Below are positions 4,906 through 33,947 of a stretch of 64,000 nt of DNA, piece after piece. The stretch is from assembly GCA_010093995.1 (NCBI GenBank), contig ML992502.1, forward strand, positions 2,172,541-2,236,540, read 5' to 3'. Positions within the stretch are counted from its first letter, which is position 1. The number at the start of each line of letters is the position of its first letter. Made by a program: the position numbers and the translations under genes. The DNA is from Elsinoe ampelina. Lineage: Eukaryota. The notes under the pieces were generated by a model, which saw only the letters and a program-made list of their open reading frames with translations, did no database searches and was not told the DNA's origin.

Positions 4906-5164
4906 TGTCAACCGAGGTATAAGCTAGAGCGCTAAGAAAGACCCTGATTCAGTTCACCTATAGTTAAACTTAGTTAGTATCTACTATAACCTTAATTCAT
5001 AATCAATTTAGATCATTCTAGTGTTAGTTTAAAGCTATTAAGGAGTTTACTTGATTTATCTAACTTATAGTGCACCAAGTTGAGTATTTATGTAGTTACA
5101 ACCTACCAAACTTTGGTGGGGCAGGCAGTAATCAATCCTTTTTCCTCCCCCACACAAGTCAACA
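4906..5164 (+). repeat. 3' LTR of copia copy 1 (259 bp, TGTCAAC...GTCAACA)
   Basis: TG...CA ends, preceded by a purine tract, aligns end to end with 32471-32729. Confidence 0.93.
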
Positions 5165-5174
5165 CCTGAATGGA

Positions 5175-5182
5175 GTCACGTG
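5175..5182 (+). promoter_or_regulatory. GTCACGTG E-box (Cbf1/CDEI-type bHLH site) in the YRA1 promoter
   Basis: Exact RTCACRTG match, 10 bp from the LTR end and ~320 bp upstream of the ATG; binding is inferred. Confidence 0.55.
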
Positions 5183-5501
5183 AAAGAGCTAAAATGCCAA
5201 GGCCCCAACCTCCTGCCTCCTAAACTTTCTGCGCAGCTGCCTCTTCTTTCAGCTCCCATCACTTCAACACCCAAAGAGGCCGATTCAACTCCATTTCATC
5301 AAGCGCATCCATTTCACAAACCTTCCAACGACCACTTCTCCGACAACAATTAATTATTCAATTCACGAGTCGCACGACTTTGACTCGAAGGACTAGCGCC
5401 CTTCACGACTTCCTCGCAAGCACTTCACAGCAACACTCGTCGCGTCACTTCACGCGCATTTCTTCTCCAGCAGTACATTCAGTCACATCGCTCATATCGC
5501 A

Positions 5502-7232
5502 ATGTCTTCCAAGCTCGATCAAAGCCTTGAGGAGATCGCCGGTGGCCGTCGATCCACGCGCCCGAATGCCCGCCGCAACAGGAAGTCCGGAACAGTTGCG
5601 CCTGTTGGAGGTGTCGCGAAGAAGACTGCGCCAAAGCCCGCAAAGGCCATACCAACGGGCCCGAGAGCTCCAGCTGTAGTGCCATCGAAGGGACCAAGCA
5701 AGATCATCGTGAGCAACTTGGTGAGTTTATCCGCCCATTATCCATCGCATCATCGCTGACATATTCCAGCCCGATGATGTTACAGAGCAGCAAATCAAGG
5801 TACGTTGACCGAGAGCGTCAACAACTCGACCTTTCTTCGACTGCATTTATGCGAATTCTGTTTGAGCTCCAATGAGCATGGTCGCCTGCAATGTGCACCA
5901 TATCCTGTGGTCATGAACCGTCTCCTCGGCCAATCGTGTCACGCCTTCACAAGCGACGCAAAGAGCTTAATAAAGAGTCGAGACAAAAGGTTCTGGAATG
6001 AGCGACAAGCCCTGCGCATGCGCGGACTGTACGCGCGAGCGACGCCAAAGTGGTACCTCACATTCCTCACCCAGGCAAACAAAGGCATTCATAATCTCAA
6101 CCGTACTCAGGACAGGTCGTCAGTGAGCATGCGATTGTATCGGCGAATACGGATCAACAATCTCTACTGGAACTGTCGCACAGGGGAAGAATGATCTTTG
6201 GACCACTTTCGTCACTCCTGGCTGCCCATGGATGGCAAGTTTCCGGTTTCTCCCATATGGCGCGACAGACGTCTGCCCATTTCCAGGCTCTCATGATTCA
6301 CGTTGCTTCCGACACTGCCACGCTCGCTTTCACGTGGCTACGCGATGCTTCAAATTGGACACCGAGCACTGAATTTAATGCCTTGATGAGAACGACGTTC
6401 AAGCAAAAGACAGTACTTCTCGTCCATCGCCCTCGAATATACCTTTGCTGCTCACTGATGACCCAACTGATGTCACTGGCTGCGACTTGAACGACTTTGA
6501 TCGGCATTCGATTTTCTGGGTCCGCGCCGTCCTCTTTCTTCAACGCACGCCGCGAACGGAGTTGATGAACGTCCGAATCCTCTTCTAACATTGCATCATA
6601 GGAATACTTCTCATCCACCGTCGGACCCGTCAGGAGCGCGCTCATCAACTACACAAAGACTGGCAAGAGCACTGGAGTCGCCACCATTGTCTTCCAAAAG
6701 TCCAACAGCGCCGCCGAAGCCGCCAAGGCATACAACGGTGTCAAGGTCGATAACCGTCCTATGAGGGTAAGTCTTGCCAGGATCCATAATGTCGAGCTTA
6801 TCTAAAGGTCTATCAGATCGAGGTCATCGTTGATGCCGGATCCGTAGCTGCGCCGCCTGCGCCAAAGGGTCTTAAGGACCGCATCGCGTAAGTTCCTGTG
6901 CCAAATCACATACCTTCAACCACTCTGACGCTTTTAGCGCTCCCAAGAGCGCGGCCCCGAAGAACGCTGCTGCAGCGAAGCCCAAGGCTGCTGGTGGTAA
7001 GCCCGTCAACGGTGCTGCACCGGCCGGTGACCAGAACGGCCGCCGCGCGAAGAAGCCCAGGAACGCTCGCCCCAAGAAGAAGACTGCCGAGGAGCTCGAT
7101 GCTGACATGGCCGATTACTTCGAGCCGGGTACTGCTGGTGCCGCGCCTGCCGCTTCTACGAACGGAGCCGCACCAGCCGCAGCCGCCGCGCCCTCTGGAG
7201 GCGAGGCTGCCATGGAGGACGAGATTATGTGA
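5502..7232 (+). CDS. YRA1: mRNA export adaptor Yra1/Mlo3/ALYREF; exons 5502-5720, 5770-5799, 6602-6766, 6817-6887, 6938-7232
   Basis: N-box MSSKLDQSLEEI; RRM (KIIVSNLPDDVTEQQIKEYFSSTVGPV...GKSTGVATIVF...YNGVKVDNRPMRIEVIV); C-box KKTAEELDADMADYF; GT-AG introns keep the frame. Confidence 0.95.
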
Positions 7233-7771
7233 AGATTTGGCGAGGGGCACGAACACAATCGACTACAACGACGATTATCAGACTGGCATACCTAGCACGG
7301 AGCAGTACAGCGCAGCTGGCACCGACTGCTTTTTCTTTCAGCTTCTGTTTTTGTACAACACCTTGAACTTCTGGCAGATCGGAAAGGAGCAGAATAGCTA
7401 GTACCAATGATCAGGCTCACCTCCTTTTTTCCCACCTCGCTTCAAAAAGACTACTGCATACCGACAAACCATTGCTTCACCAGCTTTGAACACAAGTTCA
7501 GTATTCATCTTCAGCGGCATGCGATGGATACTTGGCTTTAGTGAGACATGCACTCGACATGGAAGCTCATACAGCAAGATGGCGCTCATCAGAAGACATG
7601 CGTTCATGGCTATCATACGCCCACACTAATGCAATGCTGGGACCCAACATATCATACACCCTCTTAATCAACCCCCGGTCCACCTTCCCACCATGCACCC
7701 AACTACTTGCCCTCCCTCGCGCTCCCACATCATTCCTCACCCGCAGTAATCCTCCCTTGTGCCCGAAGGAT

Positions 7772-9255
7772 TTAGAGGAAATACTCGCCCGCCCTCCCCC
7801 TCCCCGCCGGCACCGCACGTCTATGATCCGGCACAGCCGAGAATATCGTGAAATCCGGCTCGAGGTCCTCGCCCAAGGTCATGATGGAAGCCACGTTGCC
7901 GCACCTGTAGCAGTAGTTTGGCGCGGACCACACGGTCACCACGTCTTGGTTTTTGAAGTGGTATTTGTAGCCCTCGTTGACGAGCTGGTGGGCGCGGGCG
8001 ATGAGGGTGAGGTTGTTGACGTGGTTGAACTGGGGACATGTAAGCGTTGGGGAAAGGAGAGGGGGGATCAAGAGGAAGAGAAAGGGTAAGGGAGGGCAAG
8101 GGAGGGAAAGGGAGGGAAACGGGGCCAGGGAGGGAAACGGGTTAAGGGACGTACCTCTGTGGCCACTTTGTCCCCGAACAACCATCCTGCTCCGCGAGGA
8201 GAGACGGCCCACGTGTCTACCTCTTCGGGGTCGCTCCAGACGAGATCGCAGAAGGCGCCTTCGTGCGGGATTTCTTGCGCGCGAGCTACCACGCGGATCT
8301 GGTCTAGTGTTCTGATCTCCGGGCTGAGGCCACCGTGCACGCAGAGGACTTTACCGTCTACGATGGCTGCTAGGGCGAGGAAGTCGAAGACCTGGCAGCA
8401 GCTCTTCCATACGCTTGCGTTGCCATATTTGGTCTGGCATTCTTCGTAGAAACCGTATACTTGGGTGATTTGTCGTGATTCGTGGTTGCCTCGTACTAAA
8501 GTCACGCGGTCCGGGTATTTGGCTTTGAGGCACATGAGGAGGGTGAAGGTTTCGAGGGAGAAGTAGCCGCGGTCGACGAAGTCGCCGAGGAAGACAAAGT
8601 TTTGCTTGCCGTTGTTGAGGTGTGTCTTCTTCCGTTGCGTGGCTGAAGGCGAACGAACGTCTTCTATTCCGCTGTCAGAGTCGGTGGGGGTATCGCTGCC
8701 GCTGGGGCCGCGGTCTGCGGTGCCTGTTGAGCGGGACCGGACGCGACCGCGGATCTCTTCCTCCTCTTCCTCCAGGTCATCGGCGTCTTCGCTAGCGTTG
8801 GAGGCTGAGGAGGTGTATGCGCTGTCGTGCTGGAATCGCCGCTTCATCTTCTTCTTGACTCGAGGGTCGGTGATCTGAGAAGGGGGTTCGAGTGCCGAGG
8901 CTTTGATGGCCGCTGCTGCGGTACTGCTAGGACTACCAGCTGTGGCAGAGACGCCGGCCGTGGATGTGAGGTCTTCATCGCCGGGCATGCCGCCAGCTAC
9001 GTTGAAGAGTTCGAGAAGATCATAGAATTGGCCGTGAATGTCGCCGCAAACCGTTACGGGTGTCCGGACAGGCTGTATATTTGACTCTTCCATGAGACAC
9101 TCTTTTACTATTTCGCAAAGCTTTTTCATATCTGCTTCTGGGAGGTACCTGCATAGACGTGCTTGGGCCAACCACTCGTCCGGACCGGCGTTTGAGGGGA
9201 GGACAGCGGGGCCCGGCTGTGGGACATCAGAGTCGCGCGCCATTTTGGAGCTCAT
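7772..9255 (-). CDS. SIT4: PP6/Sit4 Ser/Thr phosphatase catalytic subunit; intron 8030-8154
   Basis: GPDEWL...[46 protein letters not shown] and C-terminal YFL. N-terminus matches the Sit4/Ppe1 subfamily. Confidence 0.93.
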
Positions 9256-9765
9256 GGCTGGGCTTTATGGTATCGTGGGAAATGAGGTATAAATGTTGAA
9301 GTCGCAGGACCGCTATATTGCAGTCTGACGCCCAGCAGCAGGCCGGATCTCTAAGCAGTGTTTCCAGTATGGCTTCGGCGGCGGCGACGAGAGATAGCAA
9401 TGCGGTACGGGTCGTCTATCCTTACATCTCCTAGCTCTCCAGCTTGGCGTGAATGTTGCGCAAGCCGCGAATATGTGAAATATTGTCGAGAGATGGTCGT
9501 GTGATCGAGAGGGGCAGTCGAAGATGAGGGTCGATGTTGACCGCCGGCAGGAAATCGAGGCCGAAGTCGAGCCCTTGCAGCAGCTTTCAAAGGTTGCGGC
9601 TTTTGCCCCACGCTCGCCCGTTTGAGGTGCAGATGGGTCATGACTCGTGTTGCGGCTCTAATCGCACTCCATCCCAAGCTTCTATTGCCATCCTCTCCTT
9701 TCACAAGTGCTATTACACATCGCTAGACTGGTTTAGATAACAGAGAAGAGACACGACGCTGTAAG

Positions 9766-11398
9766 ATGCCGCCAAAATCGGCGAGCAACGCAAATGCGTC
9801 TGCACCGACTCCAGCTGGCATCATAAATGTGAACCCCACCACTTTACAGCCGGCACAAGCCAAATCAGCACGTCTCAAGGTCGTCGTGCGTCGCCTACCT
9901 CCTGGCTTGACGAGGGAGGAGTTTGAGACGTCTTTTGGCGAAGAATGGAAGATTGGAGGAGGCAAGATTGACTGGATCGAGTACAGGACGGGCAAGATCA
10001 GAAGGTCTCTTCAACATTCCTATGTCTAGTCCAGCACGCTGACTTCGCAGTCCCGGAAAGCATCCGGAGCAGTCACGCGCATATTTGCACCTCACCAGCG
10101 AATCTCATGTCAAGCCGTTCGAAAACAAATTTCTGGCAATCACCTTCCACGATGCAAAGGGAACACACCGCCACCCGGATCTCAAGTACTTACCACCTAC
10201 GCTGGAATTCGCATCTTTACAACGTGTCCCGACAGGTAAACCTCGTTTTGACTCTCGTCAAGGCCTGATCGACCAAGATCCAGAGTATATGGCATTCCTG
10301 GAGGGAGAGACTATGGCCATTCCCAAGGCACCGGCAATCGACTCCAATTTGACCGAGAGAACAAAGGAGCATGTCACCTCAACGCCGTTGATCGAAGCTC
10401 TACGCGAGAAGAAGGCCGCCAAAGCAAAGGCTCTCGCTGCAAAAGCAGCAAAGCAGGCACCCAAAGCAGAGGAGCAGGCTAGTCCTGAGAAAGCCAAGAC
10501 TGTCAAGGGGAGGAAGGGCAGAGATGAGGCGAAACCTGTGGTGAAGGATGTCAAGAATAAGGAGCTTACCAAGACCTCCAACAAAGAAAGTAGGCCCGCG
10601 CCAGATGCACAGGCCCCGGCGGCGGCAACAGCCTCGCCACCACTAGCACGCCGCCGCGAACGCGCACCTGCAAACATCAAGTCAATGCTGCAGCGCGATC
10701 TTGGTCTGGCTCCTTCACCTCGCAAAAGCAACAAGGATACTCCACAGGCAGAACTGACCCCCTCACCGGACAAAAAAGGACAGTTGCAACCTACCGAACC
10801 TCTTGCCGCGTCCTCTAGAAATGCTCGCCTGAAGAAGGACGGTCAAACAGCGGCGAAAGCTGCGCCGACAGAAGCAGGCAAAGGCCATGTTAATGCACAG
10901 GCCCCGCCACGTGCTCCTAAGAGCGGACAGGGCGCTTCTGTACCAACTCCCGCAAACCCCACAGCCTTGACGCCACAATCTGGCAATCAGACGACTCGTC
11001 CACCAAAAGCGCCAGCCAAGCCATCTCCTGGGGCAACCAAGGCCTACCTGAAGCACGCAAACGCATCTCAAGGCGTCACTGAAGAGCTCCTCAGGACAGC
11101 GCTGGCGACATTTGGCGAAATCCTGTCTCTGGAAATTGATAAAAGGAAGGGTACGGCTCTCGCAGAATTCAAGACGACAGAAAGCCTGGCCGCGGCTATG
11201 GCTAAGCGCTCTGTACCAGTCGCTCAGGGCGCAGTGGAGGTCTTAGAATATAAGGAAAAGCCTGCAGGTACGGCCAGAGGTGTAGGAAGCGGTCGTGGAA
11301 CCAATCGTGGTCATCGAGGACGAGGTGGAAGCAGAGGCGCAAGTGGCGGTACTCCACCAGTGGCCGCAGCTACGGCAGCAACGGCGAATCCTGGCTGA
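9766..11398 (+). CDS. UPF3: Nonsense-mediated decay factor Upf3 (Smg4/UPF3 domain plus C-terminal RRM-like region); intron 10005-10050
   Basis: RLKVVVRRLPPGLTREEF...SRAYLHL...PPTLEFA...DSRQGLIDQDPEYMAFLE. A 46-nt GT-AG intron with GCTGAC branch site joins the two ORFs in frame. Confidence 0.9.
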
Positions 11399-12044
11399 AC
11401 GATGCGTGGGATGTCCCTGCTAGTGGACAGGCAAGCACCAACCAAGATCACACTTACTGCCACGATGCGACCATCCACAGGCTCCTGAGGTGCAATAGCG
11501 GACGGCAAGACAACTGCGACGTCCAGTGTCGCCCGCTTGGCAGATTCACAATGCCTTTGTTCGAGCACCTCTAGACTGGCACGAAGATTGGCACAGCATC
11601 GCTTTGCTTACCGGCTGGTCGCTGAGCACTCTGACCTGGCTGCATTATCCTGCCCGCAGAGACTGCGACAGGGGTCTTGTCCCGTAGAGACAAGATAGAA
11701 AGAAATGAAGAGTGATGTATCCCTGGTTCTTTGTTCATTTACTTGTTTCCTGAGTCGTCATCATCTTGATCAAAGAACGTGGTCGACTTTCTCCTTGTCT
11801 CCTTGTCCACTTCCACTGTCTTTTCTTTGTTGTTTGACTCGGAAGTTGCGAACAGAAATGGCTTCCGTGTCTCATTGTTGGTATATCTAAGTCTGCAATC
11901 GCCCATCCACTAGAGACTCACCATCCCATCTTATTCTCACGACACCGCATCCCAACTCGTACCTACAGGCCCTGGTGGTCTGTTTGGTCTCTCTCTTTCC
12001 CGGTAAGTCACCGTCCCCGACTTGCTAACACAAATCTAGCCACC

Positions 12045-14831
12045 ATGTCGTGGAACACTTCCAACTTTCGCGTCAACGTCTTCCCTCGCCCGAGCGTGTG
12101 GCCTCCTCGTCGCAATGCCGGTCAACAGATCCCCAACTTTTATGTTCCTCCTCCCCGTCCCCGACCTCGCCGTCCGGCGCTGCACAGGACCCGTCAGCCT
12201 CTCCGATCGGCCATGAACAAGGACCCCAGCACATGCCGTGTCATCCCATTCGGCGGCAACCACCCAGATACTGTCTACGCCAATGAGTTCAGTGAGCGTC
12301 TTCCTGGTGAGGACAAGGTACGCTTCCTTGCCTCGCAGGTTGACGCTGAAGGTCCCGTTCGTCCCGGTGAAGAACCACCCCAGCGTGTATGCAAAGTCTG
12401 GCCCGGATCGCCTCACTGGCGTGGTCTGAGCCATGAGTGGCCCTTGGACGAGGAATTTCCCATCGTCAACGAAGACTGGAATGACTACTGGATCAAGAAG
12501 CCTCGCTCTGAGGAAAATCCTCATAAGGGCTATCAGATCCCTGCCATCTACGACAACGTGAAGGAGTGGAGCGACATGCCCGAGGGCTTTCATTTTCCGA
12601 AAGGCGTGTACCAACGTGACCTCCTCGGTAGAACTTTGGAGGAACCAATTGTGCCCAATGCCCACGGCATCAAGCGTAAGCGTACAGCCAATGATGTTCT
12701 GCCTCACCCGCCTCTTTCAGTGGACAACTGCTTCTGCGACTCTCACGACCTCAAGGAGTATGTAGGTCTGCCCTGCAAGAAGGCTCGTCATTTCTACGAG
12801 CTCCCTGGTCACAACTGGATCGCCAAGTACGCGTTTCCGCCAAACCCGAGCGCTACACCATATGTCCACAAGACTCCAGAGGAGATCGACATGCGCGTAC
12901 ATTTCGTGGACAAGATGCCGGAATTCGCGCCACTACCCCCGCCGATGTACATCTTCGGTCACGTCCCCGGTGCTTTCCATGACTCTGATGAGGAGATGGA
13001 CGACGAGCACAACGACAACGCTTCGGAGTCAAAAAACTCTGAAGCCCAGGCCAGCACCGGCGCCACTGAGATCCTCGGTGGGTTGACCCTGGGCGCCAGT
13101 ATTAACACCGCCATGTCTGCTCCGTTTGGTACACTCGCTTTTGCAGCTGCGAACGACAACCTCAGTGAGGCGATTGAGAAGTTACTGCAAGCTGAGTATC
13201 GCGAGTCGTATGCTAAGATCGCGAAGGAAGCTGCTGACAAGGTCAGAAACAAGAAGCCTGTGGTCGCCAGGAGTGTGGAAGATGCTGCGGCCGAGAAGAC
13301 CTCAGAGGACAAGGAGATGGACATGTTCAAGCTCTATCGTCACCACATTCGCAGGATCGAGGCTGATGCCGAGGTTGGTGCAGTCGACGACGGTGTGAAG
13401 AGCGCGCAGGTCCCGCGCCCTTTCTTGGGCTCTGAGTCTTCTGGCTCCCACAAGACCTATGTCACGTCAAAGCCCTTCCGTCACTACGTCCGCCGCCGCC
13501 CTATCCACCTCCGCGGCAAGACATACAGTCCCGTCACATCGGATATATCTGAGAAGTATGCGACTGCGTCCGAGGGAAAGACACAGGAACTACGCTACTT
13601 CCACAATTTTGACTTTGAGGATGTGCCTCTCGATCCTCTTGCAAGGGCACGGGCACAACAGACTAGCGTTTATTCTGAGGATCCGTTTCAGTCTCTGTCC
13701 CCTCCGCAATTGCCCTTTGCGCTGGCCCCTCCACAGTCGCCCTTTGCTCTGTCGCCTCCACCCTCACCATCTCCTCTCCCGCGCGGGACGCTCCGCCGCC
13801 GTTCCGACAGCTGCAAGGAAGAGCCCATCGACGAAGACGCAACGCCACCGGAGCAAGAAGCCTACGTTCGCCAGGTCGATCAGAACCGCCTCGCCCATCT
13901 CCGCCGCTCAGTCCTCCTCAGGGGTCTACCACGTATCAAGACCACATTCGGTCCCGCCCCCGAGCCGTTCGAAGCCCAAGACCAAGACGGCGCTTCCCAA
14001 GACGCACCCAAGCAGGACGCCCGCGACACCTCCAACAACACCGCCACCAACCCCGGCCGTGACCCGCAGGCCCCCCCTCCGGGTCCACGCACCCACCGCG
14101 CAACCCCTCTCCCCTCTCCCCTCCCCTCCTCCTCCACCTCCTCTTCCAGCAACTCCTCCAACCCCATCCCCTCCCCCATCACCTCCCCCACCCCCTCCCT
14201 CCGCCTCCTCCAAGACACCCTCTGGCAAACCGAGCACGACGCCCGGCACCTCGCCCTCGCCCACGCCTCCACCCAACAACGCACCGACCCCGCCCTCTTC
14301 GCCCGCACCACCCTCCTGTCCGCCCACCTCGGCCTCGAAGCCCAGCAACGCTCCATCGTCGCCCAAGCAGGGCATCACAACCTGCGCATGAGCCGCGGCG
14401 ACATCCCCTCCTTGGCGCTGGGGATGACGGTCGACGGGGGCGCGCCGGATGATTGGTACGTCACGCAGGGGGGGTTGAGGTTGGAGGAGCACTACGCGAG
14501 GGAGGCGAGGAGGGGGAAGGTGGAGCGGTTGAGGGAGGAGAGGGAGAGGGGAGTGAGGGAGATGGTGAGGGGGGGCAGGGGGTGGGTGGGGGTTACGCGG
14601 GGGCCGATGGTTCTCCGGGAGGGGGCGAGGGTGAATCGGTTGTATAATCGTGGCGAGGATAGGGAGGTTCAGGTGGAGCTAGGGGGAGGACGGGAGCAGG
14701 TGCAGAGAGATGATGACCCCCCTGAGGATGTCATGATTGAGACGGGGAGTTTCAGCGATGATGGAGAGGTAGGGATGAGGATGTTGAGGCTGCAGGATCA
14801 TGATGCTGATGCTGATGATGAGGCGGAGTAG
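12045..14831 (+). CDS. Hypothetical 928-aa protein, Pro/Ser-rich, family not recognised
   Basis: Long uninterrupted ORF with GCCACCATG context; candidate 5'-UTR intron at 12003-12039. Confidence 0.75.
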   Translation: MSWNTSNFRVNVFPRPSVWPPRRNAGQQIPNFYVPPPRPRPRRPALHRTRQPLRSAMNKDPSTCRVIPFGGNHPDTVYANEFSERLPGEDKVRFLASQVDAEGPVRPGEEPPQRVCKVWPGSPHWRGLSHEWPLDEEFPIVNEDWNDYWIKKPRSEENPHKGYQIPAIYDNVKEWSDMPEGFHFPKGVYQRDLLGRTLEEPIVPNAHGIKRKRTANDVLPHPPLSVDNCFCDSHDLKEYVGLPCKKARHFYELPGHNWIAKYAFPPNPSATPYVHKTPEEIDMRVHFVDKMPEFAPLPPPMYIFGHVPGAFHDSDEEMDDEHNDNASESKNSEAQASTGATEILGGLTLGASINTAMSAPFGTLAFAAANDNLSEAIEKLLQAEYRESYAKIAKEAADKVRNKKPVVARSVEDAAAEKTSEDKEMDMFKLYRHHIRRIEADAEVGAVDDGVKSAQVPRPFLGSESSGSHKTYVTSKPFRHYVRRRPIHLRGKTYSPVTSDISEKYATASEGKTQELRYFHNFDFEDVPLDPLARARAQQTSVYSEDPFQSLSPPQLPFALAPPQSPFALSPPPSPSPLPRGTLRRRSDSCKEEPIDEDATPPEQEAYVRQVDQNRLAHLRRSVLLRGLPRIKTTFGPAPEPFEAQDQDGASQDAPKQDARDTSNNTATNPGRDPQAPPPGPRTHRATPLPSPLPSSSTSSSSNSSNPIPSPITSPTPSLRLLQDTLWQTEHDARHLALAHASTQQRTDPALFARTTLLSAHLGLEAQQRSIVAQAGHHNLRMSRGDIPSLALGMTVDGGAPDDWYVTQGGLRLEEHYAREARRGKVERLREERERGVREMVRGGRGWVGVTRGPMVLREGARVNRLYNRGEDREVQVELGGGREQVQRDDDPPEDVMIETGSFSDDGEVGMRMLRLQDHDADADDEAE

Positions 14832-15296
14832 GTAGGTCGTTTTTCCCATCGTGCATGTGGCGTCGATTGAGACGAGCGAGGTGGGTTTTTTCTACGACTG
14901 ACACTAGGTTTTGTCTCGTCTGGCGCTGGCGTCATGGCTTTGAGTGGTGGAATAGGTTTGTGTGTATTCATGGTAAGTAGTAGCTTAGCGTGGACTGGTT
15001 GTGTCGAGTGGGATGGCCCCTCGAGCTGGCTTGGCTAGCTGTTTCCTTTGTTGACTAGGCATTTTCCAGGCCTCGGAAGTCTTTGATACTTGCTGACAAT
15101 ATGAATGCTCAAACACATAGTGCTCTCATTGGTAGTGAAAAGTGACTTGATCATGTAACTTCTTGTATTGAAAAGCGTTTCGATATCGTACACCCGTTCC
15201 TTCATCGCACTCATCCATGACAGCCTATCTAATAAGCGTCTTCTCGTCAATAAGTATACACAGCAAGAATCGAAATCAGAGCGAATATGCTCCGGC

Positions 15297-20536: not shown

Positions 20537-21008
20537 CTTGCTCGAGGGGAATGTTTGTTGCAAGAGTTGGGCGCGTCGATCGCGGGGCTTAGAAGAATCG
20601 GATCCAGTGAAGCATCATATTTGCTTGATACTATCCGACTTGTGTGACGGAAAATAAATGTTGAGCGGCTCTTCGCTGGCAGCTTGAACGGTCGGCTTCT
20701 CAAGATCTTTCACATGCGGTAGTCTGGTTAGAGGTTAGCTGCAGTTGGACGCGGGAGTGTTTTCACCCGCGGGTGTTGCACCGAGAGATGCCCGATGAGG
20801 CTTAGCTTCAGTCCCACATTTGCCGACTTCATGCCACGACGACAGGCGGCAACCTTGATAACCGGACTAGCATTACAAATTTCAATATCCCTGGTAGTCA
20901 TCTTGTCGACTCCTTCAATCCTGGATCACTGGTCTCGACGGTTGTGCGGGCGTCGCTGTCTCGGCATAGCAAATGTTCAACAATATGTGAGATTTTCACA
21001 AAAGTGGC

Positions 21009-23915: not shown

Positions 23916-24123
23916 AGTAGAGATTACAGGCGTTGGACAAGTATGCGTTTGCTCTTTGCTTCCTTTCGAGCTAGATACCCAAGCGCTTATGATGATATTT
24001 GTATCAATACCACACCTTGCACCACCATCCTCTTCCGGCCGTGCCTTTGCAACTGCATCGCCACCGCTCATCCCTCCTCCCACCCCTCCCACTTCACCCC
24101 CAACATCCACTCCTCCGCAGCCT

Positions 24124-25047
24124 CTACTGCTGGAAATTCATACTATACCCCCCACTCCTCTCATCCTTGACAAAATTAAAATTCTCCGTGCTCAACCCAA
24201 ACGGCTTCAGCAAACTATTCCCCAACCCCTTCAGCGTCCCCATCATCTCGGCCATCTCCCTCTGCCTCGCGTCGTCCAGCCTCGGCCCCAGCGCCGCCAA
24301 CGCACCCTGCACGGTGTTGCGATCTGTAGGGGACAAGCCGGGTGCGCGGAGCAGGAAGCGGTAGTCTTCTTCCGCGCCCTGCAGGTGTGACCAGGTGGCG
24401 AGTTCGGTGCGGGCTTTGGCGCGGCGGAGGAGGATTTTGGAGCGGAGTTTTTGGACTTCGGCGAGGGTGTGGCCGCTTTGGTGCAGCTTGTCGAGAGCTT
24501 GTTCGGTCTCGTCGGTGGCTTCTTCTGCTCGGCCGTCGACCTGGAGGTCCTTGTTGGTATTGCCTGTCGTGACATCTGCTTTCCCGTTCGTCCCGTGTCC
24601 TGCCTCCTTCTTGCTGCCCGCCGTTCGTGACTCAGTGACGTCTACCCCGTCCAGACTTCGTAGATTGTCCACCGCTTTGTCCGCGCTTTCGATGGCTTCC
24701 TTCCATTCTGCGAGCTTGATGTGGCAGGCCGCTATGTTACTCCGCAACACTGCGATCTCATAGTCGAGGTAGTTGGGTACTGAGGCGAGGGCGCGGTCAT
24801 AGGTAGAGATGGCTTGAGAGAAGGAAGAGCGAGCGAAAAGAGCGTTGCCTTCTGATTTGAGATCGGTGGAGGTGGAGAGGAGGGAGGCTTCTTCAGTGGG
24901 GGAGAAGCGGTCCTCGCGCGGGGTTGGTCGAGGGAGAGAGGGATTGGTGGCAGCGGTCGGGGGCTGAGAGGAGGGTGACGGTGAGGGAGAGCGAGAGCGG
25001 GTGGAGTGGAAGGTCGCTGTTGAGGACGCGGGCGACGAGGGGCGCAT
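24124..25047 (-). CDS. TPR protein, TTC1-like
   Basis: LKSEGNALF...AISTYDRAL...SNIAACHIKL TPRs; TTC1-type C-terminus LKGLGNSLLKPFGLSTENFNFVKD...GGYSMNF. Confidence 0.9.
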   Translation of the reverse strand: MRPSSPASSTATFHSTRSRSPSPSPSSQPPTAATNPSLPRPTPREDRFSPTEEASLLSTSTDLKSEGNALFARSSFSQAISTYDRALASVPNYLDYEIAVLRSNIAACHIKLAEWKEAIESADKAVDNLRSLDGVDVTESRTAGSKKEAGHGTNGKADVTTGNTNKDLQVDGRAEEATDETEQALDKLHQSGHTLAEVQKLRSKILLRRAKARTELATWSHLQGAEEDYRFLLRAPGLSPTDRNTVQGALAALGPRLDDARQREMAEMMGTLKGLGNSLLKPFGLSTENFNFVKDERSGGYSMNFQQ

Positions 25048-25251
25048 CTTGATTGTGGTGGGGGAGGTGGGTGGTGGGCAGTGAGGTCAGGCATATGGCG
25101 GAAGGAAATTTACGGTGAGCGAGATGTATGTATGTGAAGAAACTACAGTGAGCCAGATTTTGTTCAGCGAAGCCTCTCAGACCTGTCCTTGTGTTGTATC
25201 GGACATGCCAAAGTCTTCCTGACATCAATAGTGATTGATTCGGTATCAGCC

Positions 25252-26409
25252 ATGGCGTCCGATTCAGGGAATAGCACGCCGAATTCAAGGTTCAAGACGT
25301 CAGATATGGCGGCTGAAGAGCAGCTAAAGTCTCAGACTGTTGGCTTGGTCCATCTATCAGATTTTCGCAAACGAAGAGCAGAAGCACTTGACACGGATGG
25401 TGCCTCATCAGGCACGACGACGCCTACAGAGAGGTATGATCATTTCCCCTGACGAGTGACGCAGAGCTGAGTTCTCAAGCGCAGGGAAGGAGTGAAGTTC
25501 GCCACCAAGAGACGCAAAGCTCCTAAACAGAAGGGCGGCTTGTCCTTCGGCGGCGACGATGACGGGACCGAATCATCCCAAGCCGTATCTGCAAAGACGA
25601 CACCTCGATCAAAAACACCCGTGTCTCGACAATCTCCTTTCGATGACCAAGTCCAGCCCAAAGGTCTAGCTGCAAACGCAGGCGTCAACTTCGTGGCCAA
25701 GTCAAAGACGAAATCCGCGTTAGCACGTGAAGCGGAGATTAAAGATGGCCTCCGCAAGGAATTCTTGGCCGTACAGCAGCGGGTCCGAGCGACTGAGTTT
25801 CTGGTGCCTTTCGTCTTTTACGACGGAGCGGATGCTCCGGGCGGCATGTGCAGAATGCGAAAGGGCGATCAGATATGGCGTTTTCTAGATCGGGCGCGAA
25901 AGGTCGGTGCGGGACGTGAGGGTGGCATGAAGCAGTGGGGACGGGTGAGTGTGGATGATCTGATGGTTGTCAAGGATGGGTTGATCATCCCACATGTGAG
26001 TACAATTCAGCTGTGAGGGGTATCGTACTGACGGTCGAAGCATCTGGACTTTTACTCGTTCATGTTGAACAAGGTGAAGGGCTACAATGGTGTAGAGATG
26101 TTTCCATACTCGGCAGAGCCTAGTAAGGCGACTCCTGAGACGGTCGCGGACACGGCTTCTACTGGTGGGCTGAATGTTCCGGGCCAAAAGCCTTTGGTCG
26201 AGAGGAAACCCGACAGTGCGTTCGCTGATGCTGAGCTGGAAGGGTACAATGACGATCCGGCTCTTACCAAAGTGGTGGATCGTCGATGGTACGAGAAGCA
26301 CAAGCACATTTTTCCTGCAAGTATCTGGCAGGGTTTCGATTCGGGGAAAGATTACTCTACGCTCGTGAGGAAGGATGCTTCTGGGAATGTCTACCACGCA
26401 AGTGGATGA
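25252..26409 (+). CDS. XAP5: XAP5/FAM50 family nuclear protein; introns 25434-25484 and 25996-26040
   Basis: LKSQTVGLVHLSDFRKRR, PFVFYDG, VSVDDLMVVKDGLIIPHH-DFY, KVVDRRWYEKHKHIFPASIW. Confidence 0.92.
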
Positions 26410-28203
26410 AAGGTGTGGTGCCTGGATGCGATGTGCAGCGCGCTATTGAAACCTGAAGTGGATTCGAGCATCTTGGACGATGGAAGCAAGTGTAGACGGA
26501 GCGGCTGGCCTTGGTGGAGTGTGGACAGATTGTCAAAGGATCTGGCAGGGTTAATACGTTGATGAACGGCACCGGCATGTGTACCGAGACAGATGTCTAG
26601 GCGGTAATATGTTTGGTGGCGTCCCCGAAAGATGGTAAAAAGCGTGCTAAAGCATGCTTGCTTGTTTCTTGGATCGACCACAACCAGCACCTTGGAAAGT
26701 CCAGGCGATATTAGGCGAATGTGCATGCCATCTCCTCGGAGGACCCGAGGCTGCACGTGGGGGCGACTGCTTGGTAGTGAACCAGTACTCTGCGCTTTCT
26801 GAAGAGTTACTTTGCTCAACTGCGCTTCCACTTGTGCGAGATATGGATCTACTGCTGCGGCACTTTACATACAGTCGTCGCTTCAGCCAAGTCGGCACGT
26901 AGCTGCAGCCCTTGTTGGACCGTGACAAGCTGATGACTGGTACTCCCGACCAGGCAAACTATGTGGTACAAAGGCTGCATGCGGTGCTAGCCAATCTGTC
27001 CATTCTTGACGGGAAGAAAGATCACCCTCTTTCTAGATCAGCCGCAATATGTGAGTACCAACTACACGGGTGCAGGGATCTCAACAAAAAGGTACCCACA
27101 AAGGCTAAATAGGCGCATTAGCTGGAGAAATAGATGAACGTCATGCCCGCCAAGGGCAATAGTTCATGTTCACGAGCCCAAAGAGTCGGGTGGCGTCAAG
27201 CTCTAGGAAATCACAAGGCGGGGTCACTCATCTTCTTCGACTCTTCCACCTCCGATCTCATCGTCCTCTGGACAACTCTTGAGCCGCATCTCAATCTCGC
27301 TTTTCTCGGCTGATGTATCTCATCTAACCTGCATGACTTCTTTTGGACGTTGTAAGACATCTTGTTCTGTTGGTATATGCAGTCCACGTAGCGAACGTAC
27401 TACCTTATTTCACTTAGTCTGTCGTGGCACCAACGGAGAAATTCCTCGACCTATCATTCTGCCCTGGCATGTCGCTGGTCCCGACTGGTAGTTCGCTCGA
27501 TATTGCTCGATTTCCAAAGGGCCCGTGTTAGACTCCAAATCCGTTCTTGACCACTTCTGATCCAGAGTGCTGGATCTCGATGCGGCTCTTGCCTGTTCAA
27601 GTGATGTCGCTATACCGGCATCATCCGTCGAGTAAGGAGAACATCCTGATTTTCACTCATGCGATGCTGATCATGCACAGTGTTCTCCTGGTGACGAGAA
27701 CGAAGGCTCGTGTCCGCCCGAACCAGGCCGACGCCATGTACAGCGGTGAATCTCGTCCGGGTCAAATCATCGTGAGATGCTCTCGCTCAGTCACGACATC
27801 ATACCGTACAAGCGACGCTACTATCGGCCTGCATTCGGTAGCTTCGAGCTTCAATATCGACCTGCAGCCGCGCATTGCGGCCGTCTCCTCCTGCCAGCAT
27901 TGCAAGTTATCGTCCATGGTGGGCGATTCTGTTCGACGCCAGAGCTAAGAGCTACCCGCAGATAGTCACCCTCCATGAACAGTACTCATGTCGAGCCATG
28001 AGTTTGGATCGGACGGACGAGAACAGTGATGACTGGTCCCGGCTGAACTATGCCTCCCTCTTGTTGGACCAAGGTAAGATGTAGGTATAAGTACTGACCT
28101 GACATCTCTCCTCGAACCAAGAGTACGCTGGCATCTCTCGTTGAAGCCTGCTGTCCGTATTTTTGCTCCTTCTCTTGCCAACCACCCTTGTTCCTCCTTC
28201 ATC

Positions 28204-30711
28204 ATGCATCTCACCAACATCATCTTGGCCTTGATGGCCACATCGGCCTTGGCCCGTCACGTCCCTCGCCGGGCCAATGCTGTGGCTTATGCTCAGTACG
28301 ACGGCTACCCGGAGTCGAGCAAGGAGCCAGAATACCCCACCACGACAAAGAAGGAGGACGAATATCCATCTACGACAAAGAAGGACGAATATCCGTCGAC
28401 GACTAATAAAGATGAATATCCTTCGACTACTAGGTGAGTGATCGCACAGATCGGCCCTCATTTGGCAGACTTTTTATCTCAAGTCGGTGCACACACTCTG
28501 ACAGCAGTGATAGCAAGTCTAAGGAGCCCGAGCCCACTACAGGGCCGCCAAAGGAAAGCACAACGTTCGTGGATCGATGTCTGGCTGGACGGAAAACATG
28601 AGGACTGACGCTTGGCCGCAGCAAGTCTGAACCGCCAAAGGAGACAACCTCGTATACTTAGACGTGCCCAAACACAGTGAACAGCCTTGCTAATGCTCCT
28701 GCAGCAAATCTGAACCCCCTAAAGAGTCTACAACGTATGTATTCATGCTCACTTTACGCCTTGACACCTCGCTCTCAAAACTGCCTGAAGCACTGTGGTT
28801 ACCTGTTCAGCTCGACTGTTGACATTATAGATTACTACACAGGCTAACAGTCCGACAGGAAGAAAGAAGAGACGACGTGTGTCCCTCATCGTGTACTCAA
28901 TTCCATCCGCTAACTCGCGAAGCACTAAGAAGCCTGAATCCACGTCAGTAGTTGTGGCTCGTTGTAAGCCTTGAAGATCACTAACCAGGCCACAGAACAA
29001 AGAAAGAGGAAGAATCGACCAAGCCACCTCCTCCTTCGACAACTCCTGAGAAATCTTCCAGCACGTATGGCTACTTGGATATTGTGGCACCACAGGTCAC
29101 TCACGATCTTGCAGAACAAAGAAGGAAGAGCCAAGCACAAAGCCGCCGCCCCCATCTACAACTCCTGATAAAACAACATCCACGTAAGTTAGCGCATCCT
29201 TTGCATGGTCATTACTGACAATCTCTCAGCACCAAAGAGACCACGAGGCCTCCTCCAGAAACCACAAAGCCCGCAACCAGTACGAGCAGCGACAAGCAGA
29301 GTACCACGAGCGCCACGTCCAAGATAGAGACCTCGAGCACGTAAGTCACGCCATCTCATTTTGAATCAACCCAGGATTTGGGTATGTGACTATATATGCC
29401 TTGCATGCTTGGATCCCAGGTCAGGAACTCGAATCGTTGTAGCCCTTGGCTCAACTCATTTGCTGCCCTCTCCGAAGTCTTTGCTCCTTCAATGCGCATG
29501 ATCAAAGTTGTGTCGAGGATCACTGATTATTCTTTAGCGTAAAGCCTCCGGTCACAACCTCCAAATCCAAAGAAGAGAGGTAAGTAGAACTTTTATTTCT
29601 TCAATACTGCATGGTCATGATCATACCTAGATCATTGCATGATATCTCAGGCAAGGTTGCGGTATTGGCCGATTCTAATCTGACACCATTCACCATTCCC
29701 TCAGCGCTGCTGTCCAAGTTTGCACGCTAATCATGACTAGTACACCGGCACCTACTACCACAGAGGTAAAAACTACTACAAGGTCCGTGGCAAACTATGG
29801 TTTCCGATCCGAATATACATTTCTGATACATGATGCAGCGACAAGGTCACGACAACGACTAAAAAGATTGAGAGTACAACCAGGTGAGTGTTCGATATCT
29901 GTCCTGCTGGCTGGTAATCTTCTCTCGGACCTTGCTCAGGAGTAGCATGTTCCAATGGGATCATGCCTCAACCTCTTTCACAGAACTATGCTTGGTTTCC
30001 TCCCGCATGATATCAATTCATTACACGAGGAGATCTGGCCCTATCTCTTGTAGAATTGGACTACCTTGCTGACTCAAACCTTAGTGAAAAACCAACGAGC
30101 AAGGTCACGACTACTACGTGAGTCACATCTTCTTCCCTTCATCAGTCAAGCGTGTTCCTGCCCGGTTTATCGCACACATATCTTCCTTAAGCGGGTCTTT
30201 CGTCAGGCATGGTCCCCTCTCTGAGGTCCTTTACGGAATGCTTTCGTGTCGTGGATATAGGCGATAGTTCCCCCAGCGCTGATAGATCGACAGCAAGAAA
30301 GAATCCACACCAGCTCCTACGAAAACCCCCAAGGTCACCACCACACCAGTGAAGACTACAACCCGCCCTCCAATCACCGTCACCCGATCAGTTTCGACCG
30401 AACCCGACAAATCCTCCTCTACCAAAACTTCCGAGAGCAAATCCGAGAGCAAGACGACTCCTGTGAAAACCACAGAGAGCAAAACGAAGAGCGAATCAAA
30501 AACGGTCCCCACCCCAAGCACTACCCCCAAGGTCACCACCTCCCCGTCTCCTAAGCCAACTACCACAGACGAGAAGCCAAAGACAACCTGCAAGACCCTC
30601 ACGGAGACAAAGGTCGAGTACACCAGCACCGTCACGACGGTCACTTACCCGACATATGTGACCAAGACACACGTGGCGACCGTCTGTCTCCCGACGTACT
30701 ACAAGATGTGA
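28204..30711 (+). CDS. Secreted Thr/Lys/Pro/Glu/Ser-rich mucin-like protein (~402 aa), 14 exons
   Basis: Signal peptide MHLTNIILALMATSALA. Exons 28204-28433, 28514-28564, 28622-28651, 28705-28734, 28859-28876, 28923-28943, 28996-29064, 29115-29183, 29230-29340, 29538-29579, 29741-29782, 29839-29883, 30085-30117, 30294-30711; total 1209 nt, open frame, GT-AG introns with CTRAY-like branch sites. Confidence 0.85.
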
Positions 30712-31078
30712 GGTGCCGGATCAGTGTTCCGCTTGACAAGCGGTCGAGGGGGTTGAGAAGGATTGAGCAGGTGGGACATGGTTGGGGGCGGAGGGAGGGT
30801 GGGTGACGGTACTACCAGTGGCAGGGGGGGGTTTCTTTTGCGTGTTGAGAGGTCATGGTGCATGGGATACGGTCTTTGATAGAGTTACGCCTGTGCGAAG
30901 CAGGGGAGAGTGTATTCACGGCTGATACTTTTGTAGCGATTGATGTGATGGGATGTGGTAACAAGGGATATTCAGTTCGAGCATCTGGTGTATTTCCCTT
31001 GATAGTGGCAATGTGGCGTGATGTAAAGACTTTTATGATTGATCTCCTATCTACAATTATTCTCCTAGGCTGAGTCGA

Positions 31079-32146
31079 TCACCACCCCACAGCGGCCTTG
31101 ATCGCTTGTGCCAATACCGGCGCCTCGGCAGCATGCGTCGCCGCATTTGGGTGGTAATCGCAACCAACATCACTCCCCTGCGATGGCCAGTCCACAAAGT
31201 ACGCCTTCGTTCCATTAAGCTTCGAGATGGCATCCTTGAGTGCGTTGACCTGTGTCGTATGCTGAGCGTCTTCGACACTCGGGTACCCGTCGCTCAACAT
31301 CGGCGAGCTGAGCAAGAAGAACGACGCCTTCTTATACTTTGCCGAGATCGTGCCGATGAAGTCCACGAATGCCTGAGTGTAAGTGGGGATGTCAAGGCGT
31401 TCGCGCACGTTGAGGTAGCCGAAGTCGTTGGTGCCGAGGTTGATGACGACCGCGGATGGGTTCCAGGAGGATGGGAAGGGGTAGTTGCCTGTGGCGTCGT
31501 TGGCGCCGTAGCGCGTCCAGAGCTCGGGCATGAGGGGCGACGTGTCGACTTGGCCTGAGCCATAGTTGCGGACGATGCCCTTCCCTGACCAGGCGATGAC
31601 GTGGTAGTCTGCCTTGAGGGAGGTGGCGGCGAGTGCGGCGTATGTGCGCGGGTTGTCGGTGACGGCTGCGTCGTTGACGCAGGGGAGAACGCCGTCCAGA
31701 CCGTAGCCTACGGTGATCGAGTCGCCGATGAATTCGATCTGACGTTTCTCGGCTGTAGTGGCGGAGGTGGGACCGTCGGCGGTGATGTCGCCTATGCTGA
31801 CGGTTCCAAGGGCTGTCTCTGAGCGGCGACGCAGGGTGACGGTATGCTCACCCTTGAGGAGTTGGGGTGTGGAGATGGACGTGGTGTTGACCTTGCGGAT
31901 GATGGTGGGGGCAGCATTGTCGACGAGCAGCTCGAAGCTGTTATCTCCGTTGATGGCGGTCAGACCGATGGTCGCCTTGGTGCCCTTGAACTTGAACTGT
32001 ACGCCGGTGCCAGGCCATGTGAGCTCCCTTGTCGCTGGGTTTACGCGGCCCAACCACCTGAACTTCTGAGCACGTTCATCAGTCTCGACAGGAACAGAGA
32101 GAGCGCTGGTGAAGAGCAGTGACGCCAGCAGAGATTGATAGAGCAT
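31079..32146 (-). CDS. Secreted SGNH/GDSL esterase, carbohydrate esterase family 2-like
   Basis: Signal peptide; N-terminal WPGTG beta domain; IEFIGDSITVGYG, AWSGKG, INLGTND, CDYHPN. Confidence 0.9.
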   Translation of the reverse strand: MLYQSLLASLLFTSALSVPVETDERAQKFRWLGRVNPATRELTWPGTGVQFKFKGTKATIGLTAINGDNSFELLVDNAAPTIIRKVNTTSISTPQLLKGEHTVTLRRRSETALGTVSIGDITADGPTSATTAEKRQIEFIGDSITVGYGLDGVLPCVNDAAVTDNPRTYAALAATSLKADYHVIAWSGKGIVRNYGSGQVDTSPLMPELWTRYGANDATGNYPFPSSWNPSAVVINLGTNDFGYLNVRERLDIPTYTQAFVDFIGTISAKYKKASFFLLSSPMLSDGYPSVEDAQHTTQVNALKDAISKLNGTKAYFVDWPSQGSDVGCDYHPNAATHAAEAPVLAQAIKAAVGW

Positions 32147-32452
32147 CTTGAAACAGCCGGTCGATTGGTAGATCAGGGAAAAGACTCAAGCATTTCCCAT
32201 CAAGGCTTCTTCTGGCCTACCTTTATACTTGTCTGCATGTGGCGGATCACGGTGCCGGTAGTCACGTAGCGTGTGAAACCTTCCATCCCCGCACCATGAC
32301 TTCCGCGCCGAATGGACGAACGGAAAGTCTTTATACATTTACCATAGTGGACGTGGGTGAAGGAAATTGAAGGTCCAGTTTTGCGGACCGCGAGATCGTC
32401 GTTTCTCCGTGCCCAAAGAGGAAGCCACGACAAGCTTTCGGCCCGGGGACTG

Positions 32453-32460
32453 CACGTGAC
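32453..32460 (-). promoter_or_regulatory. GTCACGTG E-box upstream of the CE2 esterase gene
   Basis: Exact motif on the minus strand, 10 bp from the copia LTR start. Confidence 0.5.
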
Positions 32461-32470
32461 CGTCGTGTCA

Positions 32471-33947
32471 TGTCAACCGAGGCATAAGCTGGAGCGCCAA
32501 GAAGACCCTGATTCAGTTCATCCCAAGGTTGAACTAAACACTATCTTACTATTTTACTAATCCATGATCAAATTGGATAATTATTGTCTTAATCTACTAC
32601 TATTAAGGAGTTCTTTTAATTTAGCTATCTTTTAGTATACTAGGTTAAGTATTTATATAGTTATAATCTATCTTATTTTAGTAGTTTAGGTAGTAATTAA
32701 TCCTTTTTCCTCCCCTACATAAGTTAATAGTTATAAGCCTAGTATAACTACCCCTATATAAGTACATTACTTAGTTGCTTTCCTACTCTATTTATTAGTT
32801 AATTCTCTACTATCTTGCTTTTTAAACATTAGAATCTATTAAGAACTGCCTTAACTATAACTATAGAATTTAGGTGTTAATAAAGGGATAAATAACTATA
32901 GATACTAACACCTTAATAGCTAGAACACCTATTATTCTTGCTATATTAGCTAAATAGGCTAGCTAGCTATATATTATTAAGATAAGAGCATTAAACACTA
33001 AGATATAGAACCTTATTAATCTCTAGAAGGCTAGTAAGCTAGAAGAGCTCTCTAAGCCTTAGAGGCTAGAGGTAGTAAATACTAACTTCTTAGTACTCTT
33101 CTAGATATATAAGGAGGAATAAGCATAATATAATAAATAGTATAAGGCCTTAGCTGATTTAGCTAGCCTTATTTAGTTATTAATTATACTATAAGTTCTT
33201 ACTATTATCTAACTAGAAGAGGATTCTTATTTATAGACTATCTTTAGAGCATTAAAGAACAGATTTGCTCTATCTAATATAGCTATTTAGCTCGAGGTTA
33301 AAGCACTTTAGAGGAAGTAGCTATCTAGCTCTTCCTTATAGAATATAGACTATTAGCTTTAGTAATAGAAAGAGGTTATAGATAAGGCTAGGAACTATAA
33401 TCTACTAGAAGCTTAAGGCTTAAGGCTATAGAGAGACTTCTTACTCTCTATCTTAAAGACTAAACTAGCATTTACTAATAAGTACCTTACTAATCTAGAT
33501 TTACTAACTCTACTAACTATACTTAAACCAATTACTAAGTTTAGACAGTTTTATAAACTCTATAAGCTATATAGCACTATAAAGGCTAGTAAGGGAGCTA
33601 CAGCCTTCTCTATAGCTACTAAGAATATTCTTTATAAGAAACCTAGTCTCTCTAGAGAGCCTAAATATATATACTAAGGCCGGTATAAGTAGATTAAGTA
33701 CTATTACTTAAATAAGCATCTAAGGCTAGAAGGATAGATACTAAACTAGTAGACTATAAAGGAAGTTAAACAAAGGCTAAATAATAAGACTCTTAAAAAG
33801 AGAATTAAGACTTCTATTACTAAGGAAGTATAACATTAGAAGGAGTTAACTCTACTAGTGTTAATTAATATAGCTATTACTATTAGATTATACTTAGTAT
33901 TTATTTTAGCTACTAGTAATATCTCTAACTTATAGATACTAGATTCT
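32471..33947 (+). mobile_element. Ty1/copia copy 2: 5' LTR (32471-32729), PBS and gag, interrupted in the protease codons by gypsy A
   Basis: LTR homologous to 4906-5164; 32731-33947 is collinear with 1-1217. Confidence 0.93.

Follow-up and report, generated by a model that had tools for sequence, protein, structure and literature searches.

The same E-box lies 10 bp from two copia retrotransposon copies bordering a gene island of Elsinoe ampelina

The window, by which we mean the whole 64 kb stretch of DNA analysed here, contains a 27.3 kb GC-rich gene island bordered by two copies of a copia retrotransposon (Table 1). Both junctions between element and island are sharp AT/GC borders, at which the GC content changes from ~0.30 to ~0.50 within one bin. 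The gene directed away from copy 1 encodes a product that we take to be Yra1/ALYREF-like. Its intron at 5720–5768 is spliced out (joint 5719>5769, GT..AG) in all three of the runs X9–X11, whose contigs over this gene begin at 5265–5308. At the other border, the gene directed away from copy 2 encodes a secreted esterase; its match to a protein that NCBI names from Elsinoe ampelina is 100% identical and spans 93% of the query. A scan of 5100–5560 for bacterial-type promoters and terminators was set aside as meaningless in a fungus. The idea that the island is a mobile unit bounded by inverted ends was also considered and rejected, given that housekeeping genes lie inside it and that its ends are alike only in a single 8-mer.

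Table 1. Coordinates of the two copia copies, the adjoining E-boxes and the flanking genes in the 64 kb window.
Feature	Position	Strand	Remarks
Internal region of copy 1	1..4905	+	Strongly RIP-degraded; 5' LTR lies before the window start
3' LTR of copy 1	4906..5164	+	259 nt; TG...CA tips; purine tract AAAGGGG just upstream of 4906
Spacer of copy 1, CCTGAATGGA	5165..5174	+	Target-site duplication presumed in the first 5 bp, its partner beyond the window
E-box GTCACGTG of copy 1	5175..5182	+	With the next base, TCACGTGA, a full palindrome
First exon of the gene directed away from copy 1	5502..5719	+	Product begins MSSKLDQSLEEIAGGRR
Secreted CE2/SGNH esterase gene, directed away from copy 2	31079..32146	-	ORF of 355 aa; PF17996, PF13472, PF00657
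E-box GTCACGTG of copy 2	32453..32460	-	
Spacer of copy 2, TGACACGACG read outward	32461..32470	-	LTR-adjoining 5 bp (TGTCA on +) are the presumed target-site duplication
5' LTR of copy 2	32471..32730	+	260 nt; RIP mutation heavier than in the copy 1 LTR
Internal fragment of copy 2	32731..33947	+	Breaks off at 33947, where a nested Ty3/gypsy element intervenes

The two elements belong to one abundant Ty1/copia family, and both are RIP-degraded. In frame 3 of copy 1, with stops read as X, an RVT_2 domain was found at residues 1136–1363 (E 1.5e-12), and upstream of it an SH3_retrovirus integrase C-terminal domain at 779–843 (E 9.4e-5, weaker than Pfam's cut-off); an integrase domain ahead of RVT_2 is the copia-type order. 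The internal GC content of copy 1 is 0.26–0.31, and frame 1 carries 224 stops, the integrase reading frame having been wrecked by RIP. Positions 1–1217 of copy 1 and 32731–33947 of copy 2 share 91% identity. Over their full lengths (259/260 nt) the two LTRs align at 76% identity, or 90% with transitions ignored; they start TGTCAACC and end GTCAACA, an end that RIP has altered to GTTAATA in copy 2. This end-to-end alignment, the TG...CA tips and the purine tract together make the LTR boundaries sound; neither copy has both LTRs within the window. No further LTR copy was found in the window by blastn, and a transition-collapsed search of the same window returned, besides the two LTRs, short spurious matches only. 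A protein search with the RIP-damaged RT segment gave no intact relative at E <= 1e-5 among 796 candidates, and the family is therefore not tied to one. One metagenome match to the 20-nt LTR 5' tip pattern (L001) was dismissed as chance: it is GC-rich, looks bacterial and is LTR-like only in those 20 bases.

The abundance of the family is evident from the short-read run X1, in which 3,927 contigs match copy 1. The summed word depth is 30,068–89,991 in bins wholly inside the element (1–4,991) versus 153 in single-copy flank, figures that are not a copy number. The X1 contigs break within the repeated LTR. Because the family is so abundant, its presence at both borders of the island is unsurprising in itself. 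Most of its copies probably lie in transposon nests, and copy 2 is itself interrupted by nested gypsy elements, with a gypsy family at 33948–41243.

At copy 1, the LTR tip ...AAGTCAACA is followed by the 10-bp spacer and then by GTCACGTG on the + strand; at copy 2, reading outward on the minus strand from the 5' tip of the LTR, a 10-bp spacer is again followed by GTCACGTG. An identical motif, polarity and spacer length at both junctions had been claimed in a sequence-only reading, and the claim holds to the single base. That reading also had opposite LTR ends facing the motifs, as is indeed the case with both elements on the + strand (3' LTR of copy 1, 5' LTR of copy 2), and placed the LTR tips 338 and 325 bp from the ATG of genes that point away, distances that we recover with start codons at 5502 and 32146. 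The 5-bp flanks differ as it described, being CCTGA at copy 1 and TGTCA at copy 2. Outside the 8-mer, the aligned flanks match only at scattered single bases, and the 10-bp spacers are unrelated. The E-box as a piece of the LTR was rejected, as what precedes the 3' LTR of copy 1 is a purine tract without the motif.

GTCACGTG occurs exactly twice in the window, at the two junction sites. Whole-window shuffles contain it 0.30 times on average, and at least twice in 4 of 100 shuffles. A word of this type is no arbitrary 8-mer and is a textbook fungal transcription-factor site. The consensus of the Cbf1 site is RTCACRTG, and both junction sites fit it, making each a candidate Cbf1-type site by sequence match; CACGTG is bound by other bHLH or bZIP factors too. 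No Cbf1 orthologue was found within the 64 kb window. Within the gene island, CACGTG is present at 8 sites (~1 per 3.4 kb), and the 6 that lie outside the two junctions carry no insertion.

The chance level was estimated by simulation with random flank pairs drawn from the island. Within 40 nt, the two flanks shared a run of at least 8 bases at an equal offset in 547 of 1,000,000 simulated pairs (5.5e-4). Allowing the same 8-mer within +-3 offsets raised this to 1,057/300,000 (3.5e-3), and allowing it at any offset to 5,473/300,000 (1.8e-2). The pattern is thus real, and improbable at 5.5e-4 for one pre-specified comparison; but with n=2, a post hoc observation and a very large scan behind it, the figure cannot tell targeting from coincidence.

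Two further flanks of the family were recovered from contigs of run X10. In one, the LTR 3' tip is followed by GAATGCGGCCCCCTCCGGAGCAATCGATTT, and in the other ...GAAGCGAGTGCTGGCTTCCCTGCAATCTTC stands ahead of the LTR 5' tip; CACGTG is absent across the 30 flank bases of each. The motif is hence found in 2 of 4 family flanks overall and in 0 of the 2 additional ones, which came from the 12 of 115 loose contig ends listed. Both are single contigs of low depth (2.98 and 3.8) from an apparent RNA run, and they make a biased and fragile sample. X1 contig ends at 4906 and 5164 are absent among the 12 of 115 loose ends listed.

The reading that we favour, with a probability of roughly 0.55, is that of ordinary independent insertions at promoter edges, the motif being coincidental. 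The island is enclosed by two AT-rich, RIP-degraded transposon blocks, and the inner border of each would be an old, independent insertion of one abundant Ty1/copia family. Each would have inserted, or persisted, at the upstream margin of a Pol II promoter, ~330 bp from a gene directed away from it, and each promoter would hold an ordinary E-box, so that the identical GTCACGTG at 10 bp would be coincidence and no demonstrated targeting signal. We infer independence from the differing flanks, the target-site duplications being only presumed, and we likewise infer that the motif match is due to chance. Consistent with this are the two extra flanks without the motif, the eight island sites that make the core CACGTG no rarity, and the post hoc discovery in a scan spanning very many windows, with looser and equally reportable criteria lifting the expectation to 3.5e-3–1.8e-2 per flank pair. 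Against it, the exact combination of 8-mer, offset and polarity is seldom reached in simulation (547/1,000,000), the shared word is a known regulatory site, and the only two copies of GTCACGTG in the window sit at the junctions while the remaining CACGTG sites of the island are free of insertions. The counter-examples are also the two fragile X10 contigs, and Tf1, the best-studied promoter-targeting element, likewise keeps a fixed offset of ~10 bp to a bound protein's motif (PMC5741268). The leading alternative is guided integration, by which a Ty1/copia element of a filamentous plant-pathogenic ascomycete might read an E-box-bound Cbf1-type bHLH factor and cut ~10 bp outside it in Pol II promoters, with partial penetrance as in Tf1–Sap1. 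By analogy, the intasome could be tethered directly through the integrase C-terminus, or be drawn indirectly to a nucleosome-free or fork-stalling site made by the bound factor; its 5-bp staggered cut would then lie 6–10 bp beyond the motif, irrespective of the side or of how the element is oriented. The agreement of motif, spacing and polarity between otherwise unrelated flanks (P = 5.5e-4) is what such guidance would produce, the opposite LTR ends facing the motif are the expectation for a two-fold symmetric intasome, and each site is upstream of a Pol II gene; at copy 1, transcript contigs start at least 83 bp downstream of the motif, although contigs cannot define the transcript start. Precedents exist in the Tf1–Sap1 offsets, the Ty1 integrase targeting domain and LTR insertions in a Pyrenophora teres promoter, yet the clustering of the last is accounted for by fungicide selection (bioRxiv 10.1101/798991). 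With CACGTG in neither further flank, two post hoc cases, and an abundant family whose copies within transposon nests fit poorly with strict E-box dependence, we regard guided integration as a tentative proposal that is probably incorrect.

The two other accounts that we weighed are less probable still. Were insertion broad and persistence restricted to positions just outside the outermost essential promoter element, nested insertions could accumulate behind each survivor until the block border came up against the footprint of an E-box factor that binds strongly and may also keep RIP or heterochromatin from spreading into the gene. The abrupt AT/GC change at both junctions, the genes directed away from the blocks and the position of copy 2 as the innermost member of its nest would all be expected. 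Such survivorship does not predict an identical 10-bp spacing with the same polarity, however, and it requires GTCACGTG to be the outermost element of both promoters when the word is nowhere else in the island, other promoters included; we consider it improbable. Finally, the junctions might not be independent, being either derived from a single ancestral junction by copying or the opposite sides of a single insertion that rearrangement or misassembly has parted. The elements do share their orientation and 91% identity of their internal parts, and the first base of the window coincides with the LTR/internal boundary of copy 1, which hints at an assembly break in a repeat. But neither the spacers nor the sequences past the 8-mer are related, and an independent X1 short-read contig (27,150 nt) runs from 28 nt inside the copy 1 LTR into the island. 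The two-sides version was rejected outright because the 5-bp flanks differ, and non-independence as a whole is close to refuted.

Should the motif match be due to chance, what remains is an ordinary gene island with RIP-degraded transposon nests on either side. Were guided integration true, it would be, as far as literature searches show, the first nucleotide-precise, transcription-factor-guided integration for copia and for the Pezizomycotina, and a convergent counterpart of Tf1–Sap1. A real E-box link would explain how, in a fungal genome that is compact and RIP-active, a retrotransposon reaches safe sites at promoter edges, and would add a new pair of host factor and element to the few known tethering systems. 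It would also help to explain where AT-rich transposon blocks nucleate beside genes, as well as the repeated occurrence of LTR insertions in plant-pathogen promoters, of which fungicide resistance offers an example (bioRxiv 10.1101/798991). Among the full-text matches listed, we found no description of E-box-targeted retrotransposon integration, and among the matches listed no transposon study of Elsinoe ampelina.

Several known systems bear comparison with these junctions. In budding yeast, the Cbf1 site, CDEI, is bound by the Cbf1 complex, and Cbf1 sites lie inside 24.2% of Ty5 LTRs (bioRxiv 10.1101/2025.04.25.647736); there, the sites are cargo of the element and not its target, whereas the candidate E-boxes described here stand outside the LTR. 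In Pyrenophora teres f. maculata, five independent Ty1/copia solo-LTR insertions were placed at -46 to -90 in the Cyp51A promoter, all within 45 bp of promoter, a clustering explained by fungicide selection (bioRxiv 10.1101/798991). That family is likewise a Dothideomycete Ty1/copia one, of ~5.3 kb and with 5-bp duplications such as are presumed here, but differs in that the accessible text reports no fixed-distance motif (bioRxiv 10.1101/798991). The Ty1 integrase of Saccharomyces cerevisiae has a short targeting domain whose binding to a host protein determines where insertion takes place (PMC7459421). This interaction with AC40 of RNA polymerases I/III concerns an element of the same Ty1/copia superfamily, but Ty1 targets Pol III genes and no sequence motif at a constant distance is involved, while E-box-bearing Pol II promoters are the sites here and tRNA genes play no part in the claim. 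In relation to Tf1 of Schizosaccharomyces pombe, the present element is a Ty1/copia (RVT_2) and Tf1 a Ty3/gypsy, Sap1 is not a bHLH protein and has a 21-bp motif in place of an E-box, and the Tf1 pattern comes from very many mapped insertions, ours from 2 of 4 flanks. Tf1–Sap1 is nevertheless an LTR retrotransposon system in which Pol II promoters are entered at fixed, single-nucleotide offsets from the motif of a DNA-binding protein (PMC5741268; PMC5371812). The Tf1 insertion positions are -9 and +19 relative to the Sap1 motif (PMC5741268), and such an offset is about equal to the 10 bp that separate both copia copies from their E-boxes.

Both copia insertions that border the gene island meet it in the same arrangement. 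At copy 1, the LTR tip at 5164 is followed by the spacer CCTGAATGGA and then by the E-box 8-mer GTCACGTG at 5175-5182; reading outward from copy 2, the LTR tip at 32471 is followed by the spacer TGACACGACG and by the same GTCACGTG at 32460-32453. The sequence-only reading had placed both insertions exactly 10 bp from an E-box of identical sequence, with opposite LTR ends facing the motif, and both statements proved exact when the junctions and motif positions were read in the window. The distances it gave to the ATGs of the neighbouring genes, which are directed away from the LTRs, also agree (338 bp for copy 1 and 325 bp for copy 2, measured from the LTR tip). On alignment, the spacers and all sequence past the shared 8-mer are unrelated between the two flanks. 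Within the 64 kb, GTCACGTG occurs only at these two junctions, and the core CACGTG occurs at eight sites, all of them in the island. The match of the esterase encoded at 31079-32146 to a protein named from Elsinoe ampelina (see table) makes that Dothideomycete, or a very near relative, the most likely source of the window.

Features of the gene island and its flanking transposon blocks
Feature	Position	Strand or orientation	Remarks
Left AT-rich block	1-5000		GC 0.26-0.31
Copy 1 internal sequence	1-4905		In left block
Copy 1 LTR	4906-5164		259 nt
Gene island	5165-32470		27.3 kb, GC-rich; GC 0.48-0.64 per kb
CE2/SGNH esterase gene	31079-32146		Product 100% identical over 93% of query to NCBI protein named Elsinoe ampelina
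Copy 2 LTR	32471-32730	as copy 1	76% identical to copy 1 LTR
Copy 2 internal part	32731-33947		91% identical to window 1-1217
Right AT-rich block	33001-64000		GC 0.26-0.38
Ty3/gypsy element	33948-41243	-	7.3 kb; RVT_1, RNase H, SH3_Tf2-1; 203-nt LTRs of its own (33947-34149; 41041-41243)
Different gypsy fragment	41244-45784	+	
Inverted gypsy copy	45785-53080		91% identical to 33948-41241
Third gypsy copy, split	53081-56584 and 62770-64000		

At 32466-32475, the 5 bp adjoining the copy 2 LTR (TGTCA) are the same as the first 5 bp of that LTR (TGTCAACC...), yielding TGTCATGTCA. This repeat may have arisen by chance, at about 1 in 1,000, or may point either to a cDNA end of an unusual kind or to microhomology-assisted insertion; if the TGTCA belonged to the element, the E-box spacing at copy 2 would be 5 bp, not 10. 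A near-E-box, GTCACGTAG, lies at 32258-32266, about 200 bp closer to the esterase gene than the perfect E-box. A 27,150-nt island contig of sequencing run X1 begins at 5137 and, by arithmetic from its length, would end near this site at about 32286; X1 contigs break within the repeated LTR. On the left side, contigs of runs X9-X11, at least 99% alike to the window, have the intron at 5720-5768 (GT..AG) spliced out. These contigs start at 5265-5308, so the region they cover begins downstream of the left E-box; a contig end does not mark where a transcript begins.

The two elements themselves are ordinary: each is a Ty1/copia copy degraded by RIP, bordering an AT-rich block and missing its partner end. 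Frame 3 of copy 1, with stops written as X, matches the copia-type reverse transcriptase RVT_2 (E 1.5e-12) downstream of a retroviral-integrase SH3-like domain, the order typical of Ty1/copia; 224 stop codons fall in one frame. Between these two parts, at 2646-2753, lies a 12-nt tandem repeat (AATCTAGTTTAG, nine copies, 94% matches). Identity between the two LTRs rises from 76% to 90% once transitions are disregarded, as would be expected of RIP. The LTR pair is far less similar than the internal parts. The last ~60 nt of the copy 1 LTR, beside the island, appear almost without RIP changes; the copy 2 LTR is mutated right to its tip (GTCAACA to GTTAATA). The left block is a single element within the part covered by the window, and position 1 is the first internal base after the expected 5′ LTR, which suggests that the underlying contig or the window breaks at an LTR boundary. 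Copy 2 ends at 33947, where a Ty3/gypsy element and then further gypsy copies follow; 33948-64000 is a nest of such elements (RVT_1, RNase H, SH3_Tf2-1).

The copia family is clearly abundant: 3,927 X1 contigs match copy 1, and summed X1 word depth, which is not a copy number, is 30,068-89,991 in bins wholly inside copy 1 (1-4,991) against 153 on unique flank. Among 12 of 115 loose contig ends, two gave informative further flanks, each a single low-depth contig of run X10 whose 30 flanking letters were assumed to adjoin the LTR tip. In one, the 3′ tip is followed by GAATGCGGCCCCCTCCGGAGCAATCGATTT; in the other, the 5′ tip is preceded by ...GAAGCGAGTGCTGGCTTCCCTGCAATCTTC. CACGTG is absent from these 30 letters in both (0/2), so that the motif is found at two of the four known flanks. 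The low-depth contigs of X10, a run resembling RNA, fall at 4906-4954 and 5079-5164 and link family LTR tips to GC-rich unique sequence; some family LTRs thus appear to be located within transcribed regions or to drive them. The sole metagenome match to the LTR tip pattern looks bacterial and was rejected as chance.

Chance agreement was estimated from random flank pairs drawn from the island itself. A shared run of at least 8 bases at the same offset within 40 nt arose in 547 of 1,000,000 pairs (5.5e-4), and a shared 6-mer at the same offset in 7,844 of 1,000,000 (7.8e-3); the same 8-mer appeared within ±3 offsets in 1,057 of 300,000 (3.5e-3) and at any offset in 5,473 of 300,000 (1.8e-2). 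These probabilities are no test, because the match was noticed post hoc in the course of a very large scan. Some weight is nevertheless due to the fact that the two flanks share a canonical fungal E-box and not just any 8-mer.

We took as low the prior probability that any one family targets its insertions to the nucleotide, and weighed it against the likelihood ratio of the pattern, which is large for the exact pattern and far smaller once reporting freedom and the two further flanks are counted. The favoured reading, at a probability of roughly 0.55, is that these would be ordinary insertions at promoter edges with a coincidental E-box match. Integration truly guided by the E-box is a tentative second candidate. 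Its strict form, a Ty3-type insertion rule, is ruled out by the two X10 counter-examples and by the nesting of the copies in transposon blocks; an incomplete preference, like that of Tf1 for Sap1 sites, is possible by analogy. A survivorship or barrier effect appears improbable, and non-independence of the two junctions, nearly excluded by the unrelated spacers and differing 5-bp flanks, far more so. The junction observation is confirmed, and its interpretation as E-box targeting is neither supported nor refuted.

Among the matches listed in a full-text literature search, none described retrotransposons that direct their integration to E-boxes or to Cbf1. The nearest mention, in bioRxiv 10.1101/2025.04.25.647736, concerns Cbf1 sites carried within yeast Ty5 LTRs, which is a different matter. 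Ty1, of the same superfamily as the copia element here, binds a host protein through a short integrase domain (PMC7459421). A single promoter of another Dothideomycete has received five independent Ty1/copia LTR insertions within a 45-bp stretch, though fungicide selection was acting there (bioRxiv 10.1101/798991). At Pol II promoters, Tf1 insertions gather at positions -9 and +19 relative to the Sap1 motif (PMC5741268), and Sap1 binding by itself is insufficient for Tf1 insertion (PMC5371812). The proposed E-box mechanism would act like Tf1-Sap1, but with another element superfamily, another class of DNA-binding protein and another fungal subphylum.
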